Source: Candidatus Uhrbacteria bacterium (GTDB lineage Bacteria > Patescibacteriota > Patescibacteriia > UBA9934). Taken from it: a DNA stretch of 64,000 nucleotides. Below, piece by piece: positions 7,361 to 52,707 of this stretch (within the stretch, counting starts at the first letter, position 1; every line of letters starts with the position of its first letter). The translations under genes were made by a program, and so were the position numbers. The DNA lies in NCBI GenBank assembly GCA_943354605.1, contig CALRCK010000003.1, forward strand, positions 85,609 through 149,608, in the 5' to 3' direction. The notes beneath the pieces are model-generated. The model worked only from the letters and a program-made list of their open reading frames with translations. It was not told the origin of the DNA and did no database searches.

Positions 7361-10315
7361 TTACACCTGGAGAATATCAATAATGTTCGTTACCGACGAT
7401 TCAACGGCGTCTGGATCAAAGTCGCTTGTGCTATTGATGTCGTCGCCAAAGTGATAATTGCCGTAGAAGGCGTCGCTAATGTCGTCAATCTGTGTGTTCC
7501 AGTCGCTCCCCCAAATACTCGCTGCCACGTCTTCGCTTGCGATAGCGCGAAGCTCTCCGGTTTCGCCAACCGCGTACACCGTGTTCACGGAAACAAACTT
7601 CACCATCGTGGTGCCCGGGTGATACGTGACATTCACTCCAAGCGTAATCGACGACAGGAAGTCGTCTGTAACAATAATCACGTCGTCAAAATTCTCGTAC
7701 CAGGTAAAGTACACCTTCTCATTCGGGAACGCATGGCGCTTGCCGTCGTAGTAGTACACCGCGTGACAAGGGTCTTCCACATCCGCATCCGATCCGCATG
7801 CAAGCTTGATCAATGAGTCCACGTCAGCCTCGCCAACGGCAACGTCTTCTTCTGCAGTTGTTTCCGTTGTTGTGCTCGTTTCTGATGCAATCGTGATCGT
7901 TGTTGAGGCGCCACGTGTGGCATTGCCCGCAGCATCCACACAATACGCGTTTGCGATTGCGCTTCCCTCAGCCGCGAACGTATACAAATACGTTGCATAT
8001 CCACCAGAAATACTCATCGCGCCAATATTTGTGCTGTTCACGTACAGCGTGCATGTTCCCATGCCGCCACTATCCGCCACCGATGCGCTTAATGTTGTTG
8101 CTGTTCCCGCGGTGACCGACGTTGGCGTGATCACGCCAACCGTTGGCGCGACAGTATCCGTTGTGGTTGTTGCGGCGGCGGCAACCGTCACCGTAACCGC
8201 CGTTCCTGCGCCGATATTCCCCACCCCATCGCCGCACCATGCATATGCCGTTAATGTTCCACTCGTTGCTGCCGTGTAGCTTCGGCTGTACGTGGACGAC
8301 GACGCCGTCATCTGGCCTTGGTCACTGTCATTGACAAACAATCGGCACTCGTAAATTCCAGAATCGTCTGTTGCCGTCGCCGAGAATGTTACCGCAGTGT
8401 TCTGTGTTGCGGTGGTTGGCGTCATCGCGCTAATCGTTGGAGCAGTCGTGTCTGTAGAAACCGCGGAAACCTTTACCGTCACCGTGCTGCCGGTTCCCAC
8501 GTTCCCTGCAGCATCGGTACATGTCATGTATACCGAATAATCCCCAGCGGCATCAAACGTTCCGGATGCGGAAGCCGTTCCTGACGCGAGCGCCATACTC
8601 TTCGCAGAACCATCCACATACGCCGTACAACTCGTCACACCTACCGCGTCGCTGTACGTTGCACTAAATGTTGTAGCAACACCGGCCGTTGCAGTCGTTG
8701 GGGTGATTGCTCCCACGGTTGGAGCAGTGGTGTCCGCGCTCGCTGCTGCAGCAACCGTGACGGTTGTTGCCGAACCCGTTCCACTATTTCCTGCCGCGTC
8801 TTTACATGAAACGTACACCGACAACGTTCCGCTTGCCGACGGCGTGTAGGACAGCGTCGCGTATCCCGACGCCACCGTCATTGCGCCGACGTTCGTGCTG
8901 CCAACGTACAAGGAACACGTTGAAACTCCAACTGCGTCAGAGACAGCAGCAGTGAACGTTGATGCGGTTCCAGCAGTCGCTGTTGTTGGCGTCACAGAAC
9001 CCACCGTTGGCGCTGTCGTGTCCGTAGACGAAGACGACGCAGCGACAGTAATTGATGTGACGGTTCCGCTCTTGCTGTTCCCTGCGGCATCAACACACGT
9101 TGCCTTTGCATTGAATGTTCCGCTTGTTGAAAACGTATAGCTCTTACTTGCGGTTCCACTTGCGAGGGTCATGGCGCCCTGGCTCACTCCACCAACATAC
9201 AGCGTGCATCCCGTCACCGCGATGTTGTCTGAATATGTCGCCGACAACGTTGCTGCAGTTCCTGCTGTTGCCGTGGTTGGGGTGATGGATCCGACGGTTG
9301 GAGCGGTAGTGTCTCCGGTAATCACCAACGTTTTCGACGTCCCGCTCCCCGTGTTTCCGGAAGTATCCGTACATTTTGCCTGTACCGATACTGATCCTGT
9401 TGTAGATGCGGTGTATGAATACGTTGCCGTCCCGCTCGTGGTAGAGCTCCCGAGCGTCATCGCACCAACACTCGATCCGCTCACGTACAATGTACAACTC
9501 GATACACCAACAGCATCAGAATATGTTGCAGAAAGTGTTGTTGCAACCGTTGCGGTGATTGTCAGCGGAGTGATGCTTCCTACCGTTGGGGCCGTCGTGT
9601 CTGGACTTGCAACCGCGACGTACGTTACCGCACCCGTCCCGACATTTCCCGCAGCATCCACACACGTGACCCACGATGGATCGGTTCCGTTGTCTGGCGG
9701 CGCAGCATACAACGTTGCGGTTCCGCTTGTGCTTCCTGATCCTCCGGAAAGCGTCATTGTTCCCTGACTTGCGCTATCAAGGTACAACGTACAGCTCGTG
9801 ACACCAACGCTATCCGCATACGACGCAGAGAATGTTTGGTACGCGAATTCCGTTCCCGTTGTTGGGCTTACCGACCCCACTGTTGGAGCGGTGGTATCTG
9901 ACGACGATGAAGACGACGCAGAGACTGTTACCGTTGTGGACGAACCTGTACCGCTATTTCCGGCAGCATCCGTACACACCGCATACGCCGTGATCGATCC
10001 TGCCGGACCAGTCATGTATCCATATGTTGCGGTTCCGCTGGTTGTAGAACTTCCAAGCGCCATGGTCCCCGCCGGCATCCCGCTCACGTACAACATACAG
10101 CTCGACACGCCAACTGCATCCGAGTACGTTGCGGAAAACGTGGTCATGGTTGTAGCGGTTGCCGTGGTTGGTGTGATAGCACCAACGACTGGCGCAGTCG
10201 TATCTGCCGTCGCAAGGCTCAACGCCGGCGAAAAGACGAGAAAACCGAACCCAAAACATAACGCTAACCCCAATTTTTGAAGTCCAAAACGAATATTTGC
10301 ATTCATATACCGCAA
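7361..10315 (-). CDS. Large secreted/cell-surface protein with about 10 tandem Ig-like (~95 aa) repeats and a unique C-terminal domain
   Basis: Signal peptide MNANIRFGLQKLGLALCFGFGFLVFSPALSLA. Repeats of DTTAPTVGSITPTTATAGTA.TLSATYSDAVGV.SCTLYV.G...GAMTL.....Y.......G....Y..CTDAAGN.G.G. The C-terminal ~190 aa are non-repetitive. All plus-strand ORFs across this span are antisense artefacts. Confidence 0.75.
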   Translation of the reverse strand: MRYMNANIRFGLQKLGLALCFGFGFLVFSPALSLATADTTAPVVGAITPTTATATTMTTFSATYSDAVGVSSCMLYVSGMPAGTMALGSSTTSGTATYGYMTGPAGSITAYAVCTDAAGNSGTGSSTTVTVSASSSSSSDTTAPTVGSVSPTTGTEFAYQTFSASYADSVGVTSCTLYLDSASQGTMTLSGGSGSTSGTATLYAAPPDNGTDPSWVTCVDAAGNVGTGAVTYVAVASPDTTAPTVGSITPLTITATVATTLSATYSDAVGVSSCTLYVSGSSVGAMTLGSSTTSGTATYSYTASTTGSVSVQAKCTDTSGNTGSGTSKTLVITGDTTAPTVGSITPTTATAGTAATLSATYSDNIAVTGCTLYVGGVSQGAMTLASGTASKSYTFSTSGTFNAKATCVDAAGNSKSGTVTSITVAASSSSTDTTAPTVGSVTPTTATAGTASTFTAAVSDAVGVSTCSLYVGSTNVGAMTVASGYATLSYTPSASGTLSVYVSCKDAAGNSGTGSATTVTVAAAASADTTAPTVGAITPTTATAGVATTFSATYSDAVGVTSCTAYVDGSAKSMALASGTASASGTFDAAGDYSVYMTCTDAAGNVGTGSTVTVKVSAVSTDTTAPTISAMTPTTATQNTAVTFSATATDDSGIYECRLFVNDSDQGQMTASSSTYSRSYTAATSGTLTAYAWCGDGVGNIGAGTAVTVTVAAAATTTTDTVAPTVGVITPTSVTAGTATTLSASVADSGGMGTCTLYVNSTNIGAMSISGGYATYLYTFAAEGSAIANAYCVDAAGNATRGASTTITIASETSTTTETTAEEDVAVGEADVDSLIKLACGSDADVEDPCHAVYYYDGKRHAFPNEKVYFTWYENFDDVIIVTDDFLSSITLGVNVTYHPGTTMVKFVSVNTVYAVGETGELRAIASEDVAASIWGSDWNTQIDDISDAFYGNYHFGDDINSTSDFDPDAVESSVTNIIDILQV

Positions 10316-16421: not shown

Positions 16422-17456
16422 TTATACAACGTCCTCCCACGGCAAACCCGGACGACCAAACATGCCGTACGTTGCACACGATGCGTAGATTGGCTTTCGA
16501 AGCTGCAAACGTTCAACAATCGCTTCTGGACGGAAATCAAAACGCTTCTTCACCTCGTCGGTGAGATCGTCCCCATTGCCCGCCTTCGCCGACAACACCA
16601 ATGGCTCTGCAATGCCAAGCGCGTACATGGCGGTGATGAGCACGTTCGATGCAATACCTTCCGTGACCAACGTTTTTGCCGCAAAGCGTGCCATGTATGT
16701 TCCGGAACGTCCTGGTTTCAGCGGATCTTTTCCCGCAAGACCCATACCACCATGAGGCAATAATCCTCCATACGAATCTGCGAGAACCTTTCTGCCGGAC
16801 ACACCAGCGTTCGCGCCAAAGCCACCTTTCGTGAACGATCCGCCGGAGTTCACCAACATCGTTACGTCATCGATAGACGGCAACGACGGTACAATCGCTT
16901 CTTCCACAATCTGCGACTGCACCACCGAAAGCTCCATCGTTGGATCGTGTTCAACAATCACCGTCACGGCACGAACACGATCCCCATCAGTCGCAAGCTG
17001 TACTTTTCCGTCTGGTCGCAACCACGAAAACCGTGGATCACTCTGGCGCAACAGATCAATACGGCGGGCAATCACATTCGCATACACCACACTTCGCGGC
17101 AGCATTTCACGCGTTTCCTTCGTTGCGTATCCATGCACAATCGCTGTGCCCTGTGCACCACCGCGAACCATTGTCCGTGCAGAATCCTCCGTTGGTTTAT
17201 CAAGGTTTACAAAAAGTTCAATCGCATCCGTGTATCCCGCGGCGGCATACACCGCTTTTCCTACTGCTGCAGCATCAAAATCCGCACGCGAATCCACCAC
17301 GCCGCCGAGCATCACCATGCCGTTGCTTCCCAATGCCTGTACATCCATCCGCGTTAACGGATCTCTGCGCAAATATTCGTCGAGCACGGACTCGACAATC
17401 TGATCGCATACCTTATCTGGATGCCCGGCAAGAGGAGCCTCAACAACTTTGAGCAT
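16422..17456 (-). CDS. metK: S-adenosylmethionine synthetase
   Basis: GHPDKVCDQIVESVLDEYL N-terminal signature plus conserved internal blocks. 344 aa. Confidence 0.85.
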   Translation of the reverse strand: MLKVVEAPLAGHPDKVCDQIVESVLDEYLRRDPLTRMDVQALGSNGMVMLGGVVDSRADFDAAAVGKAVYAAAGYTDAIELFVNLDKPTEDSARTMVRGGAQGTAIVHGYATKETREMLPRSVVYANVIARRIDLLRQSDPRFSWLRPDGKVQLATDGDRVRAVTVIVEHDPTMELSVVQSQIVEEAIVPSLPSIDDVTMLVNSGGSFTKGGFGANAGVSGRKVLADSYGGLLPHGGMGLAGKDPLKPGRSGTYMARFAAKTLVTEGIASNVLITAMYALGIAEPLVLSAKAGNGDDLTDEVKKRFDFRPEAIVERLQLRKPIYASCATYGMFGRPGLPWEDVV

Positions 17457-17508
17457 AAAATATGCAGAAACACTACCACAAAAATCTTATCCACACGAAA
17501 CCTCTTGT

Positions 17509-17549
17509 GTTCGTTTTCTGTTCGGCTATGATACGAACATAACACGAAT
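17509..17549 (+). promoter_or_regulatory. Candidate LexA operator: GTTC-N7-GTTC (17509-17523) and GAAC-N7-GAAT (17535-17549) immediately upstream of lexA
   Basis: Direct-repeat tetranucleotides with 7-nt spacing resemble the GTTCN7GTTC-type LexA boxes described in some lineages. The position, overlapping the lexA start region, fits autoregulation. Confidence 0.3.
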
Positions 17550-18183
17550 GCCTATGTCCATTCTTCCACCGCTTACCAAGAAACAACGCGAAGTCCTCGA
17601 CTGTATTGAAGGCTTTGTAAAGGACAACGGCTACACACCATCGTATCGTGAAATCGCAGAGCAGCTCGGCCTTTCGTCCCCGGCCACCATCCACCAGCAC
17701 ATCAAAACACTGTGTGAAAAAGGCATCATCAACACCGGCGACCGTGGCGAAGCGCGAAGCATCGAGCTTGTGGAGCCAGAGCGCATGTCCCCTCTCGCTA
17801 TTATGCTCCCACTTGCGGGGCTCATCACTGCCGGCGAACCCATCGAAGCCGTAGAACAGAACGAAGCTATGGCGATTCCTGCAGACTTCGTGATGGACCC
17901 TATGAACTCCTACGTGCTCAAAGTAAAAGGACGGTCAATGATCGAAGACGGCATCTTCGACGGCGACTACGTGGTGGTTGAACGGAATCCCTCACCAAAG
18001 AACGGAGACATCGTGGTCGCGCTCCTAGACAATGCCTACGCCACACTCAAACGATTTTATCGTGAACGCGATCACATCCGCCTCCAGCCCGCGAACAGCA
18101 CCATGCAACCCATCATCGTCAAAGGAGACTTAAACATCCAAGGAATTGTCCGGGCCGTGATGCGACGTTTCTCTACAATCTAA
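17548..18183 (+). CDS. lexA: LexA repressor
   Basis: N-terminal HTH (LTKKQREVLDCIEGFVKDNGYTPSYREIAEQLGLSSPATIHQHIKTL) and C-terminal S24 peptidase domain (VKGRSMIEDGIFDGDYVVV...GDIVVALLDN). Confidence 0.85.
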   Translation: MPMSILPPLTKKQREVLDCIEGFVKDNGYTPSYREIAEQLGLSSPATIHQHIKTLCEKGIINTGDRGEARSIELVEPERMSPLAIMLPLAGLITAGEPIEAVEQNEAMAIPADFVMDPMNSYVLKVKGRSMIEDGIFDGDYVVVERNPSPKNGDIVVALLDNAYATLKRFYRERDHIRLQPANSTMQPIIVKGDLNIQGIVRAVMRRFSTI

Positions 18184-18368
18184 ATCTTCATCGAGAAATC
18201 TATGAACTCCATCGCCGTTCGTCACTACAATGTGACGGTTGCTTATTGCACCTCGCCATTCAATACCAAGCGCCACGAAGTCGCGAAACAGATTCGTCAG
18301 TTCCTCAATCTTCGCCGCTTCCGCAAGCATATTCGCTCCTTCGCACCACTCCGCCTTGCATAACCTCT

Positions 18369-18620
18369 ATGCCCGTTCATGAACTCCTCAACGAACCTGT
18401 AGATGTCCGTGTCGAGTTTACAGGAAAGCGCGTTCACCCAACACACGTGCACTGGGGAAAGAAGACGTACGTTATGAAAAACGTAAACCTCGTGCACAGC
18501 ACAAATGAAGGCGAAAAACGTATCTACTACTTCTCCGTATCCGACGACACATCATTCATGAAACTGCGTTTAGACACTGGGGCCTTAGAATGGAGAATCG
18601 TCGAGTTCTACAGTGAATAG
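18369..18620 (+). CDS. Hypothetical small protein (83 aa) between lexA and dinB
   Basis: MPVHELLNEPVDVRVEFTGKRVHPTHVHWGKKTYVMKNV... Coding-like, no recognised domain. Sits in the SOS gene neighbourhood. Confidence 0.4.
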   Translation: MPVHELLNEPVDVRVEFTGKRVHPTHVHWGKKTYVMKNVNLVHSTNEGEKRIYYFSVSDDTSFMKLRLDTGALEWRIVEFYSE

Positions 18621-18832
18621 TTCTCACTACTGCCTACTTACTACTTACTACTGCCTATTTATGAACACCCGTCGGAGGACCGGAAATCGTTTCACTTTTT
18701 CCCTCAGTGAAATTCTCTCGTCACACATCCAAAAAGCCCGCAAGCATCGCAGTGCCCTCAAACCGCGCACTCAAGCACGACGGTTCGAGAATAATCTTCG
18801 ATTGCCTTTAGCGCTGCTGAATAAGAACTAGA

Positions 18833-19266
18833 GGTTTTAGGTTATAGGGGTTAGGTTTTAGTATTAAACGACTCACCTGTGAAAATTCTAAGTTATCGAG
18901 ACCTCATTGTCTGGCAAAAAGCCATGATTGCCGCAACGGAAACGTACAAGCTCACTACAGAGATGCCCCTAGAGGAACGGTACGGCCTCACATCGCAGAT
19001 GAGACGATCAGCCGTTTCAATTCCTTCGAATATCGCAGAAGGAAGCAAACGCTCATCAAAAAAAGATTATAAAAACTTTTTACGAATCGCTTTTGGATCT
19101 ACAGCGGAACTCGAGACGCAAATAGAACTTGGAGTTCGACTTACGTATTTTTCAAGATCGAATACCAATATCGTTAGCAATCTTCTTTCTGAAATCTCTA
19201 AAATGCTTCAATCAATTATCGCGAGGCTCGAATATCAATCTCCCGTCCCTTCTATAACCTAAAACC
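18833..19266 (+). mobile_element. AT-rich cassette bounded by 15-bp inverted repeats (GGTTTTAGGTTATAG) carrying a four-helix-bundle protein gene
   Basis: GGTTTTAGGTTATAG at 18833-18847 and its exact reverse complement at 19252-19266, with extra TAGGGG motifs. The interior is about 42% GC versus about 53% in the flanks. It lies between the lexA-associated sORF and dinB. Confidence 0.55.
18879..19262 (+). CDS. Four-helix-bundle protein (23S rRNA intervening-sequence protein / Avd-like family)
   Basis: MKILSYRDLIVWQKAMIAATETYKLTTEMPLEERYGLTSQMRRSAVSIPSNIAEGSKRSSKKDYKNFLRIAFGSTAELETQIELG matches the TIGR02436/PF05635 consensus. Confidence 0.8.
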   Translation: MKILSYRDLIVWQKAMIAATETYKLTTEMPLEERYGLTSQMRRSAVSIPSNIAEGSKRSSKKDYKNFLRIAFGSTAELETQIELGVRLTYFSRSNTNIVSNLLSEISKMLQSIIARLEYQSPVPSIT

Positions 19267-19284
19267 TATCCCCTAAAGCCTCGA

Positions 19285-20559
19285 ATGCCTCGCCTCATTC
19301 TGCACATTGATTTCAATTCCTTCTTTGCGTCCGTTGAGGCGCAGGCAAACCCCTTCCTTCGCGGGAAAGCGTTTGCGGTTGCCGGAAAAGGTAAAGGACG
19401 AATCGATCGCGAGGCAGGGGCAATCCAAGGCAAACGTACATCCATCAGCGAGCTCTCTCATTCACGATCGGTCGTGACCACCGCATCGCGCGAAGCCAAG
19501 AAACTCGGCGTGAAAACTGCGATAACGACGCACGAAGCGCAGCGCATCATTCCAAATCTTCCCATTATTCCCGGCGATCCTCGCAAATACGCGGAGGTCA
19601 CTCATCGATTCCTCAAGATTCTCCGCGAACACTGCGATGCCGTTGAACAGTTCAGTGTAGACGAAGCGTTTGCCGACATTACTACGGTTGCCGGCGACAA
19701 GTTCGGTGCGATCATGTTTGCACAAATTCTCCGATCGAAAATTCTCGACACCATCGGCGAAGCGTGCACAGCCTCGATCGGTATCGGTCCAAATAAAGTT
19801 GTCGCCAAACTTGCGAGTGAGCTCGTAAAACCCAACGGGATCACGTTCGTCGATCCGTCCGAAGTTGAATCTTTTGTCGCGGCTCGGAGCCTCCGCGATA
19901 TCTGCGGCATTGGACCTCGGCTCGGGAAACGGCTCACGAGTCTTGGCGTCACCACCATCCTCCACCTTCGCCAAACGCCAATGGATCGCCTCATCGCCGA
20001 ATTCGGCCCGCACACTGCAGAATTTCTTTGGAATGTTTCACGCGGAATTGGCGATGACGCCGTTATCGATTCCGCAACCGACGATCCAAAATCCGTCGGC
20101 CATTCCTACACGTTTCCCCACGGACTTGAAACCGATCAAGAAGTTCACGACAACCTTCTTGCACTTGCCGACATGGTTACGCAACGCTTACGAAATCAAA
20201 ACCTCTTTGCAACCCACGTGAACGTTTTTGCGCGATACGAAGACGGTGGAGGAAGCGGCACAAACGCCCAATTACCCGAAGCAACGAACGACGGTCTCAC
20301 GCTCTTCGAGCACGGATTCCGGTCCCTCCTACCCATCATCGATATCGATCGCGGCATCCGCCGCCTCGGTATCAATGCGACACAATTCGCGAATAAAATT
20401 CCCTCCCTCATTCCCGAACACAACGAACGCCACGATCGCTGCCTCACCGCCCTCGACCTCATCGCCAAACGCTTCGGCACCGGCGCCTGGCACAGAGCAA
20501 GCACGCTGAATACGGTTTTCTTAGAGCGAGTAAGTGGCTGGCATTACGATCATGAATGA
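19285..20559 (+). CDS. dinB: DNA polymerase IV (Y-family)
   Basis: ILHIDFNSFFASVEAQANPFLRGKAFAVAG..., the Y-family palm motif, plus little-finger region. 424 aa. Confidence 0.85.
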   Translation: MPRLILHIDFNSFFASVEAQANPFLRGKAFAVAGKGKGRIDREAGAIQGKRTSISELSHSRSVVTTASREAKKLGVKTAITTHEAQRIIPNLPIIPGDPRKYAEVTHRFLKILREHCDAVEQFSVDEAFADITTVAGDKFGAIMFAQILRSKILDTIGEACTASIGIGPNKVVAKLASELVKPNGITFVDPSEVESFVAARSLRDICGIGPRLGKRLTSLGVTTILHLRQTPMDRLIAEFGPHTAEFLWNVSRGIGDDAVIDSATDDPKSVGHSYTFPHGLETDQEVHDNLLALADMVTQRLRNQNLFATHVNVFARYEDGGGSGTNAQLPEATNDGLTLFEHGFRSLLPIIDIDRGIRRLGINATQFANKIPSLIPEHNERHDRCLTALDLIAKRFGTGAWHRASTLNTVFLERVSGWHYDHE

Positions 20560-21011
20560 GGAAAAAATGCAGCAAATCTCCCCATAAGCTCCGCTTTCTC
20601 AAGAACATGACCAGATATCGCATCGAGGCATTCGGCCTTCGTTGATCCCTCGGGGAGATCGAGAAGCGTGTCAATTGCGTACAGCGTAAAGAAATATCGA
20701 TGCTCTTTATCTGGAGGTCGAGGACCGCCATATTCTAACTCGCCCCTCGTTCCTTTTCCTCGAACCCCTTCCACAATCCAACGTTCCGGAATACTCGTGA
20801 TGCTTGGTGGAATATTAAAAACTACCCAGTGATCCCACACCGGCACTCCAGCAGCCTCCGGAACATCTGGGTCGTCCATGGTTAATACCAACGATACTGT
20901 CCCTTCAGGAATATTTTCGATATGCAGGGGCGGATTCGCATTTTCAAAATCTCGACCATATTTTTTCGGGATCAATTCCCCATTTTGAAAAGCCGAACTG
21001 ATAATATTCAT
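20550..21011 (-). CDS. YbhB/YbcL family PEBP (Raf-kinase-inhibitor-like) protein
   Basis: LTMDDPDVPEAAGVPVWDHWVVFNIP and RYFFTLYAID match the PEBP signature. Confidence 0.8.
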   Translation of the reverse strand: MNIISSAFQNGELIPKKYGRDFENANPPLHIENIPEGTVSLVLTMDDPDVPEAAGVPVWDHWVVFNIPPSITSIPERWIVEGVRGKGTRGELEYGGPRPPDKEHRYFFTLYAIDTLLDLPEGSTKAECLDAISGHVLEKAELMGRFAAFFPHS

Positions 21012-21150: not shown

Positions 21151-21189
21151 AGAACAACCCGACATTTTTATTATAGCACGAACAAAAGA

Positions 21190-21225
21190 CGAACAAAGAA
21201 AAATACCCCGCCGAAGCTGGGTACT
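21190..21225 (-). terminator. Terminator after eno
   Basis: Minus-strand hairpin TACCCAGCTTCGGCGGGGTA followed by a T-rich run. Confidence 0.45.
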
Positions 21226-51996: not shown

Positions 51997-52707
51997 GCCT
52001 TTTTCTTTGTTGAGAATTCCGCTCATCTCACGGTCGATTTCTCTGATTGCCGCAGCGACCTCGCGTTTTCGTCCAAACTGCCAAAATGATAATTTCGATG
52101 CTTCGTTTATGAGTCTTATGCGTTCAGCATGCAGGACGGCTTTTCGCGGTCGTTCCATTTTTCCTGCAAGTGCTGGGGCCAGCGTCTCACCGATCCTCTG
52201 CCGTGCTTCCGCAACAACATCCGCTCGCGGAACCGATTTTGCCTGATTCGGAAGCATCGCTTCCATTTCCATGTCGAGCATGTCGCGCTGTCTTCGCGTT
52301 TCCTCGATGTCACGATCAAACGCTGCAAGTCGATCACGACCAGATTTGGAAAACCGCACAAACATTCCATCAGCATGTTTTCGTGCGACGCGAAGGTCTC
52401 GCAATTGAATATTCAGCGCATCGCGTGTTGCCGCAAGAACCGCGGGCTGAACCGAAAGCGATTCCGGTCCACGAAGTTCATTTTTTGTTCTCTGCACACG
52501 AACGTCCTCAGCACTTGCGCGATCTTTTGAACGGAATGTTGTTTCGCCCGACTGCCCTTCAATTTCATTTGGCGGCAACATTGGTGCACCGGCGGTGTCG
52601 TCAGTAGGTTCAACGATGCGTTCTGGAATGTACGGCAGCTCAATACGAGGCCGATGTTCCACGTCGTGCATCTCGTCCATTCGTCCGTCAACCATACAAT
52701 CAAGCAT
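51991..52707 (-). CDS. Hypothetical protein (coiled-coil rich)
   Basis: Start ATG overlaps the miaA stop by 1 nt, which suggests it is genuine and co-transcribed. No recognisable domain. Confidence 0.4.
   Translation of the reverse strand: MLDCMVDGRMDEMHDVEHRPRIELPYIPERIVEPTDDTAGAPMLPPNEIEGQSGETTFRSKDRASAEDVRVQRTKNELRGPESLSVQPAVLAATRDALNIQLRDLRVARKHADGMFVRFSKSGRDRLAAFDRDIEETRRQRDMLDMEMEAMLPNQAKSVPRADVVAEARQRIGETLAPALAGKMERPRKAVLHAERIRLINEASKLSFWQFGRKREVAAAIREIDREMSGILNKEKGL

Follow-up and report, generated by a model that had tools for sequence, protein, structure and literature searches.

Inverted heptamer arrays around a four-helix-bundle gene between orf56 and dinB: a probable insertion of the 23S rRNA intervening-sequence kind in an SOS operon

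The segment that separates orf56 from dinB probably belongs to the kind of insertion known from 23S rRNA as ORF-bearing intervening sequences (IVS), that is, one TIGR02436 gene set within inverted arrays of heptamers, here residing in an mRNA operon. The anatomy of the segment, the constraint on its arms and on its protein, the insertion polymorphism with linked flanks and the generality of the build are matters of observation. The insertion in the window seems to be one member of a large and coherent class, to all appearances a poorly described one. Here and below, the window is the whole 64-kb stretch of DNA analysed, and all positions refer to it.

The lexA, orf53, orf83, orf56, four-helix-bundle (4HB) and dinB genes form one co-oriented string, in which the cassette lies between the stop codon of orf56 (TAG, 18829–18831) and the ATG of dinB (19285). 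The features of the locus are:

17509–17549, plus strand: candidate LexA operator pair in the lexA promoter, conserved in the metK–lexA spacers of all relatives
17548–18183, plus strand: lexA, 211 aa (TIGR00498, 193 bits; PF01726 and PF00717)
18202–18363, plus strand: orf53, a conserved small basic ORF of 53 aa, second gene of the operon, frame kept in relatives
18369–18620, plus strand: orf83, a conserved partner gene upstream of dinB, found in relatives
18626–18652, plus strand: solo G-poor heptamer array (ACTACTG CCTACTT ACTACTT ACTACTG ...; TRF period 7, 3.9 copies)
18661–18831, plus strand: orf56 (MNTRRRTG...), 56 codons, conserved by comparison with relatives
18831–18861, plus strand: 5' arm, about 4.4 heptamers, C-poor (TRF, pattern scan)
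18879–19262, plus strand: 4HB gene, 127 aa, GTG start (TIGR02436/PF05635)
19252–19282, plus strand: 3' arm of inverse heptamers, G-poor (inverted-repeat and pattern scan)
19285–20559, plus strand: dinB, Y-family DNA polymerase IV, 424 aa (family search)

The insertion extends from about 18823 to about 19297, with the core at 18831–19282. A sequence-only reading of the window had put the cassette between lexA and dinB. It does precede dinB directly, but three small conserved ORFs separate it from lexA. The segment had also been described as AT-rich, and the GC content of 18833–19266 is indeed 0.41, compared to 0.528 for the window, 0.53 for lexA and 0.54 for dinB. The reading frame of orf53 is conserved in seven relatives (L084, L085, L087, L088, L089, L113, L115), and nearly every relative whose sequence extends upstream of dinB has orf83 there, even at a DinB identity as low as 31%. 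Profile searches gave no family match for either of these two ORFs, neither the 4HB protein nor any of the small ORFs matched a defence system in PADLOC, and a search of 17300–20700 against Rfam (E-value mode) yielded nothing significant and no rRNA. In the 64-kb window, which is a part of the genome, there is no further copy of the 15-mer terminal repeat, two matches with three mismatches being register shifts, and no further AGGNNNN array or 4HB gene.

The lexA promoter contains GTTCGTTTTCTGTTC at 17509–17523 and an inverted imperfect copy of it at 17533–17549, the two flanking a TATGAT hexamer that resembles the -10 element. It is the only place between metK and dinB where GTTC-N7-GTTC occurs. 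We take this motif to be a candidate LexA box of the alphaproteobacterial type; the operator type is not established for the host phylum. No LexA-box candidate and no convincing promoter or terminator was found between lexA and dinB; a LexA box of dinB upstream of the cassette, which the earlier reading had asked to look for, is not seen there. With neither a LexA-box candidate nor a convincing promoter detected ahead of it, dinB most likely shares the transcript of lexA, and so does the cassette.

The cassette is bounded by GGTTTTAGGTTATAG at 18833–18847 and its exact reverse complement at 19252–19266. These are the 15-bp inverted repeats of the earlier reading, exact as placed; the perfect inverted match is 16 nt long (18832–18847 and 19252–19267). 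The "terminal repeats" are in turn the best-matching part of two 31-nt arms (18831–18861 and 19252–19282) that are 81% complementary. According to TRF and the pattern scan, each arm is formed by about 4.3–4.4 tandem heptamers of the AGGTTTT type: the units of the 5' arm are AGGTTTT AGGTTAT AGGGGTT AGGTTTT, and the 3' arm is the inverse. The 5' arm starts at the last base of the orf56 stop codon, this G being the first paired base of the stem, and carries TAG stops in each of the three frames. Pairing ends at 19282, which is also the end of the 3' arm, 2 nt ahead of the dinB ATG. The stop codon of the 4HB gene (TAA, 19260–19262) lies inside the 3' arm, in agreement with the overlap reported earlier.

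In the fold of the arms alone, 27 bp form a stem interrupted by three small internal loops (−37.1 kcal/mol, z = −6.2), and the same stem closes the whole cassette in its minimum-energy fold. In L003, a relative that carries the cassette, 63 of the 66 arm positions are identical to those in the window (33/33 for the 5' arm, 30/33 for the 3' arm), unlike synonymous sites, 0.53–0.78 of which differ between the two. Both substitutions within the 3' arm of L003 keep or improve the pairing. The arms are under constraint.

The protein belongs to the PF05635/TIGR02436 family, as had been proposed, with scores well above both cut-offs: 131.8 bits for PF05635 (E = 1.3e-38, cut-off 33.8) and 122.2 bits for TIGR02436 (cut-off 24). 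The AlphaFold model, based on an alignment of 45 homologues, consists of four helices with pLDDT 93.6. Its best fold match is 2GSC (Xanthomonas XCC0516; rmsd 0.9 Å, TM 0.82–0.89), the next one is 2RLD (TM 0.79–0.90), followed by the DGR accessory protein Avd (4DWL, 8UB7) with TM 0.75–0.78 and 12–13% identity. The 2GSC and 2RLD structures comprise five chains each. The protein of the window is basic, with a predicted pI of 9.6. Between the window and L003, the 4HB genes are 79% identical in nucleotides and 79% in amino acids, compared to 77% for DinB, and dN/dS of the 4HB gene is 0.14; codon substitutions thus demonstrate purifying selection on the protein.

The same build is observed throughout the family. 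The sample comprised the 80 best-scoring PF05635 gene loci from a scan of one genome per species and, in addition, 14 loci from viral contigs; the 80 genome loci come from Patescibacteria, Bacillota, Bacteroidota, Chlorobiota, Ignavibacteriota, Acidobacteriota, Fibrobacterota, Actinomycetota, Planctomycetota and Pseudomonadota. An inverted-repeat score of at least 14 was obtained for 47 of 79 4HB loci, as compared to 2 of 207 control ORFs from the same loci. With a looser, uncontrolled threshold of at least 12, arms are present in 71 of 80 loci (median 30 nt). Of the tandem arrays in 698 kb, 120 have a period of 7 and 39 a period of 8; the counts for periods 5, 6, 9, 10 and 11 are 0–8, and those in shuffles are 0–2. 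The arrays adjoining 4HB genes have 4–6 units. The polarity of the arms is fixed and the unit sequences vary by locus: the 5' arms are C-poor (10% C), with TAG seen 175 times and CTA 23 times, and the 3' arms are G-poor, with 177 CTA and 21 TAG. The complementarity of the arms is kept even where the units differ completely between loci.

Most cassettes are situated between co-directional genes. In most loci, no more than about 20 nt lie between the end of the upstream open frame and the start of the arm, and a downstream co-directional start codon is found at most about 30 nt past the arm end. In 76 of 79 loci the 4HB gene has a lower GC content than its flanks, the mean difference being 8 points; since low GC is a trait of the family, it is no sign of recent transfer at the window locus. 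Viral contigs of IMG/VR feature the same combination of the 4HB gene and inverted arms. In several Flavobacteriia, the cassette lies between sdhA and sdhB (the names are from the downstream N-terminal sequence and protein sizes). In X. campestris, the 2GSC homologue is located between accB and accC, being preceded by the array GGGAATC GGGAGTG GAGAATC GGGAATC and followed by CCCATTC-type units. None of the fetched loci has a 23S-like motif, so no sampled cassette resides in rRNA. At an orthologous site in L043 and L078, the synonymous divergence of the cassette is equal to that of the flanks, and hence cassettes can be inherited vertically for long periods. Replacement of the 4HB gene by transfer was considered as the cause of its high divergence at one and the same site in two Capnocytophaga species and rejected, as synonymous divergence matches that of the flanks (pS 0.56, flanks 0.39–0.51) and faster protein evolution suffices.

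The window is from a metagenome assembly of the Patescibacteria type. The state of the orf56–dinB junction in relatives was determined by a metagenome scan with DinB and by look-ups of cluster members. The sequence-only reading had called for a comparison of the lexA–dinB spacer, and at this precise junction the cassette is present in some relatives and absent in others. It is found in the window, in L003, which has the same gene arrangement and DinB 77% identical to that of the window, and in the P0003/P0252 contig. In L085/86, there is no cassette and only 6 nt separate the orf56 stop codon from the dinB ATG. L084 and L121 have no cassette either and carry an unrelated GC-rich insert, for which Rfam gave nothing significant (L121), and L087/L094 and L113 carry other hairpin inserts. 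No 4HB gene was called in the P0244 genome.

The DinB host tree is ((L085/86−, L003+), (L084−, window+)), so that the cassette splits both sister pairs. The end of orf56 reads AAG AAY TAG (..NKN*) with the cassette and CGR GAR TGA (..NRE*) without it, and codons 3–4 of dinB read CGC CTC in filled sites, as opposed to CGA TTG or AAG TTG in empty ones. The flanking markers AAGAAYTAG and CGC CTC thus co-segregate with the cassette, crossing the host clades. The breakpoints are the same in both clades, and at more than about 30 nt from them each genome resembles its own sister. In filled sites, about 462 nt replace the 15 nt of empty ones. Comparison of filled and empty sites revealed no target-site duplication, and no transposase was found.

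Simple deletion cannot recreate the empty sequence CGRGARTGA(TGCA..) shared by both host clades. This leaves either repeated site-specific gain or exchange of alleles by recombination, with short co-converted flanks. The identity of the 4HB proteins across the three cassette lineages is about 79–86%. Incongruence of these identities among the window, P0002 and P0003 is weak evidence for transfer; what the transfer reading relies on is the pattern of presence and absence, together with the linkage of markers in the flanks. Between the window and L003, the divergence of 4HB is close to that of the hosts, so that long residence with exchange of alleles fits as well as repeated insertion. The view that the bounded cassette is a small mobile unit is supported by its presence and absence at an exact junction against the host tree and by the linkage of flanking markers.

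A different explanation is that the 4HB gene is an ordinary resident of the SOS operon, non-mobile, with the hairpin serving as a cis-regulatory element (an attenuator, a processing site or a stabiliser) and the presence/absence pattern produced by loss. It is consistent with the retention of the gene in three lineages at about 79–86% protein identity and dN/dS 0.14, with the co-orientation and tight packing of the cassette with its neighbours, and with the vertical persistence of the sdhA–sdhB cassettes of Flavobacteriia. Relatives also show a second insertion site. The lexA 5' UTR of L090 and L097 houses a more distantly related 4HB cassette that has arms of its own and lies after the conserved promoter motifs and before the lexA ATG, and both sites would put the 4HB gene under the LexA-controlled promoter. 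However, deletion does not yield the empty sequence common to the two host clades, the host tree is at odds with both the presence/absence pattern and the linked markers, the same build is seen in viral contigs and in operons unrelated to this one (accB–accC, sdhA–sdhB), and the GC content is below that of the flanks in 76 of 79 loci. Hence we regard loss of a resident gene as unlikely. SOS-specific targeting of the cassettes was considered as well and rejected: there are two sites in one operon, but the related sequence amounts to about 170 kb with about two independent events, which cannot be told apart from chance.

Heptamer arrays are found not only around 4HB genes. The solo array of the window continues as a repeat run up to CCTATTT, directly before the ATG of orf56 at 18661. 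At this junction, the heptamer array of L003 is a different one, and relatives that lack the cassette have no array. Inverted heptamer hairpins without an ORF are exemplified by two copies, about 90% identical, that flank one gene in L046, and more of them are seen in L060, L063 and L102. The L046 hairpins are not deletion derivatives of the local 4HB cassette, as the heptamers differ. Among arrays elsewhere in the loci, 25 of 46 share heptamers with the local 4HB arms, compared to 3.5 expected when the arms are taken from another locus; two loci supply half of the 25.

Arrays of this type have been described. GGGAATC arrays of Xanthomonas and GGGGAYT arrays of Nostoc were discussed as possible G-quadruplex sequences (PMC4692102). 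In Xcc, GGGAATC forms 186 sites, mostly of four units, with 70 convergent pairs, and the table of that paper places repeat 15 between bccP (XCC0517) and XCC0516; its main text does not mention XCC0516 and does not discuss a link between 4HB genes and arrays (PMC4692102). The TAACTGA arrays of Beggiatoaceae, Cyanobacteria and Bacteroidetes were suggested to be possible sites of translation control upstream of start codons (PMC4679880). Neither study connects the arrays with 4HB genes (PMC4692102, PMC4679880). The arms in the window belong to this class, which is defined by intergenic tandems of 7-nt units in 2–6 or more copies. Dispersed arrays, including the cyanobacterial STRR, share with them the tandem of about four units, the intergenic position between co-directional genes, frequent occurrence in convergent (inverted) pairs and frequent contact with a start codon. 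The difference is that the published arrays are mostly empty or solo, whereas the pair in the window encloses a gene.

These observations bear on a further alternative, that the arrays act as single-stranded sites for protein binding or translation control and not as a hairpin, their inverted symmetry being secondary. The positions of the arrays speak for it: only 2 nt separate the 3' arm from the dinB ATG and the solo run reaches the ATG of orf56, matching the locations reported for TAACTGA arrays (PMC4679880). Many arrays are solo, and the arm mismatches in 71 loci show no G-U bias (73 G-U against 92 A-C, p = 0.16). The lack of this bias means that selection for RNA pairing in the sense strand is not demonstrated, and a role of the arms at the DNA level is equally compatible with the data. 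On the other hand, inverted complementarity is enriched around 4HB genes (47/79 against 2/207), the pairing is kept where the units differ completely, and the L003 changes keep or improve it. We consider single-stranded sites with secondary symmetry improbable as the whole explanation; this alternative and the insertion of the IVS kind are partly compatible.

For the insertion in the window, the nearest known kind is the ORF-bearing IVS of 23S rRNA, with every tested feature in common except the rRNA location. Such IVS with an ORF have been known since 1993 (also in Leptospira), the role of the ORF being unassigned. Both are inserts of about 430–450 nt with a PF05635-family ORF that encodes about 120 aa; both have complementary termini with a stem of about 28 bp, heptamers upstream of the ORF, and GC content below that of the host. 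IVS have been described as selfish or possibly mobile and are sporadically distributed, in likeness to the cassette. In Coxiella, the 28-bp terminal stem is cut by the Coxiella RNase III in vitro, heptameric repeats precede the S23p ORF, and the GC content is lower than in the host (PMC4990558). The authors of that study conclude that production of S23p in vivo is unlikely (PMC4990558). The differences are that the cassette occupies the junction of two cistrons in a protein-coding operon, while IVS reside in helix 9, 25 or 45; that the arms of the cassette are heptameric over their whole length; and that excision by RNase III was shown for IVS, whereas for the cassette it is predicted from the 27-bp stem. 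In our incomplete coverage of the literature, the Coxiella IVS was the only case in which a paper linked flanking heptamer arrays to PF05635/TIGR02436 genes, and the heptamer–4HB link appears under-described.

The cassette also resembles MITE and REP/BIME elements: it is small and intergenic, has terminal inverted repeats and is present or absent between relatives, and the ORF-less heptamer hairpins occur in two copies of about 90% identity (L046). Unlike these elements, it has no target-site duplication or cognate transposase, its arms are tandem heptamers and not a unique TIR, and its cargo is a non-transposase gene.

The similarity to DGR Avd lies in the four-helix bundle, the basic character and the pentameric state of solved relatives. 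One could therefore think of an orphan or remnant DGR accessory gene, given the bAvd-like fold (TM 0.75–0.78) and weak matches to PF22296 and NF033474. These matches are below the cut-offs (26.4 bits against 40 and 31.3 against 80, respectively), so that the Avd models do not recognise the protein, the identity is only 12–13%, and the closest structures, 2GSC and 2RLD, are non-DGR. No reverse transcriptase is encoded within 6 kb on each side or among the 20 scanned window ORFs of at least 303 aa, and no pair resembling template and variable repeats (TR/VR) is present within 8000–30000. A remnant of a DGR is thus very improbable, and the sequence-only reading was right not to claim one. As for a chance match in AT-rich, low-complexity DNA, the probability is negligible even though the 15-mer occurs only twice in the window and heptamers inflate partial matches, since the inverted-repeat score is 16 against the mean of 6.9 in shuffled flanks (z = 10.3), the arms are conserved in L003, and the feature is family-wide.

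Under the preferred reading, an insertion of the IVS kind, the cassette would be transcribed with the SOS operon. The arms would pair in the operon transcript and push the insert out as a hairpin, which is also how an IVS is accommodated in an rRNA helix, and the base of the hairpin would set the orf56 stop codon next to the start codon of dinB. Ribosomes that terminate on orf56 or translate the 4HB ORF may melt the stem, freeing the dinB start and keeping translation coupled. By analogy with the rRNA versions, the arm stem is a likely substrate of RNase III; a tblastn search with an E. coli RNase III query gave no match in the window, itself a part of the genome. Recombination or gene conversion, acting on one and the same site, would account for the spread between lineages, and not classical transposition.

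The Avd protein of DGR systems binds RNA and a reverse transcriptase. Purely by inference from this RNA binding, from the basic pI and from the five chains of its solved relatives, the 4HB protein would be the obvious candidate for a binder of heptamer-array nucleic acid. Basic and probably pentameric, it may act on its own arms and on similar ORF-less hairpins, and thus could be the element's own factor of maintenance or spread and not a host SOS function.

More tentatively, TIGR02436 proteins as a whole could be dedicated partners of dispersed heptamer hairpins, in which case IVS and cassettes would be autonomous elements and empty arrays non-autonomous ones; we think of this as a possibility, held with low confidence. 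Empty arrays would then be kept uniform within a genome by a process dependent on the 4HB protein, possibly with a polymerase partner such as Avd has. The elements would be able to colonise operon junctions and rRNA loops because the arms pinch them out of the host RNA.

Such a picture would join the 23S rRNA IVS, the "four helix bundle protein" family and the intergenic heptamer arrays. To our knowledge, this very large family is annotated everywhere and has no known function, and we know of no explanation, over decades, for the intergenic heptamer arrays of cyanobacteria, Xanthomonas and Beggiatoaceae. If the link is true, each gains a testable partner, the protein in the repeat and the repeat in the hairpin cassette, and small elements able to reside in operons while leaving them intact would make up a widespread class. 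For the host genome, it would mean that dinB, the SOS translesion polymerase gene, is translated downstream of a foreign hairpin, and its translational coupling could change.

The heptamer make-up of the repeats and the build common to the family go beyond what had been read from the letters of the window alone.

The orf56–dinB junction, where the window carries the cassette of a four-helix-bundle gene (4HB; TIGR02436/PF05635), is filled in close relatives lacking this cassette by an unrelated insert, rich in GC and about 168 bp long. The 3' part of the insert (gacaggacccgttgatgagtgaga) is found again in locus L003, upstream of a MazG gene, and therefore the insert is a second small repeated element; it has no match in Rfam. 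Two more inserts at this junction are long hairpins that lack heptamer repeats. The orf56–dinB spacer is a hot spot for hairpin elements of different kinds. Relatives at a greater distance carry a 4HB cassette, bounded by its own arms, after the conserved lexA promoter motifs and before the lexA start codon; this position is a second site of insertion in this operon, independent of the first. The elements are as follows (L-numbers denote loci from relatives or other genomes).

L084 2841–3000; L121 2220–2500; L003 1–40: GC-rich insert and its recurrence
L087 2830–2990 (same in L094); L113 2760–2990: long-hairpin inserts, orf56–dinB junction
L090 520–960; L097 350–800: 4HB cassette upstream of lexA

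The lexA–dinB region of the window has several other features, listed here with two motif copies found elsewhere.

17509–17549: conserved pair of GTTC-N7-GTTC-type motifs, lexA promoter
21180–21194, minus strand: similar motif copy with a T-rich spacer, upstream of a PBP-family gene (20550–21011, minus strand)
52476–52490, plus strand: similar motif copy with a T-rich spacer
18202–18363, 18369–18620, 18661–18831: three small conserved ORFs (orf53, orf83, orf56), lexA–dinB interval
18626–18652: solo heptamer array, poor in G (ACTACTG CCTACTT ...), orf83–orf56 junction

The promoter pair is a candidate LexA operator, with direct repeats of a LexA-box type known from Alphaproteobacteria. In nearly all relatives whose sequence reaches upstream of dinB, the 83-codon orf83 is found before this gene, even where DinB identity is as low as 31%. 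Pfam, NCBIfam and PADLOC give no match for orf83, and hence its product may be an as yet uncharacterised protein that partners the Y-family polymerase. The repeat run of the solo array extends to the orf56 ATG. At the orf83–orf56 junction of L003 the heptamers are different, of the AACTTTA type, and the cassette-less relatives have no heptamer array there.

Core operons also harbour 4HB cassettes, namely accB–accC in Xanthomonas and sdhA–sdhB in several Flavobacteriia. The list adds 4HB loci from Patescibacteria and Planctomycetota.

L118 2423–2873 (X. campestris): cassette in accB–accC, its gene a homologue of PDB 2GSC
L031, L043, L054, L058, L078 (Flavobacteriia): cassettes in sdhA–sdhB
L014, L028, L040, L046, L077 (five Patescibacteria genomes): cassettes directly upstream of homologous genes
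L071 289–4739; L072 958–3715 (Planctomycetota): two loci dense with arrays of one unit family

At the sdh site of two Capnocytophaga species the arm interiors are completely unlike, the flanking proteins being 96–98% identical. The arm units of all five Patescibacteria cassettes are unlike one another; four of the five downstream genes encode products with a MxFQVPQFIEVEDKIFGP-like start. In the two Planctomycetota loci, the arrays consist of GAAGCGAC 8-mers and CAGTTGT 7-mers; these units also make up the arms of the 4HB cassettes there.

Two ORF-less hairpins, about 90% identical, flank a single 221-aa gene in L046.

L046 3915–4017; 4680–4783: ORF-less hairpins, one on each side of the gene

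Their arms consist of heptamers (AGAACGT AGTGCGT ... ACTACGT), and each hairpin provides the final codons and the TAG stop of the preceding ORF and reaches as far as the ATG that follows. The two hairpins are similar to MITEs and do not derive from the local 4HB cassette.

A figure legend of a large CRISPR-association screen (PMC10910872) places '23S rRNA IVP' among proteins tied to CRISPR arrays or adaptation modules. Heptamer arrays flanking 4HB genes might be mistaken for repeat arrays by such screens.

Repeats of another kind lie elsewhere in the window.

8112–10210: seven diverged copies of a 53-nt segment, inside ORF 7361–10315 (minus strand)

These copies are spaced by about 290 bp, and the ORF encodes a 984-aa protein with bacterial Ig-like domains.
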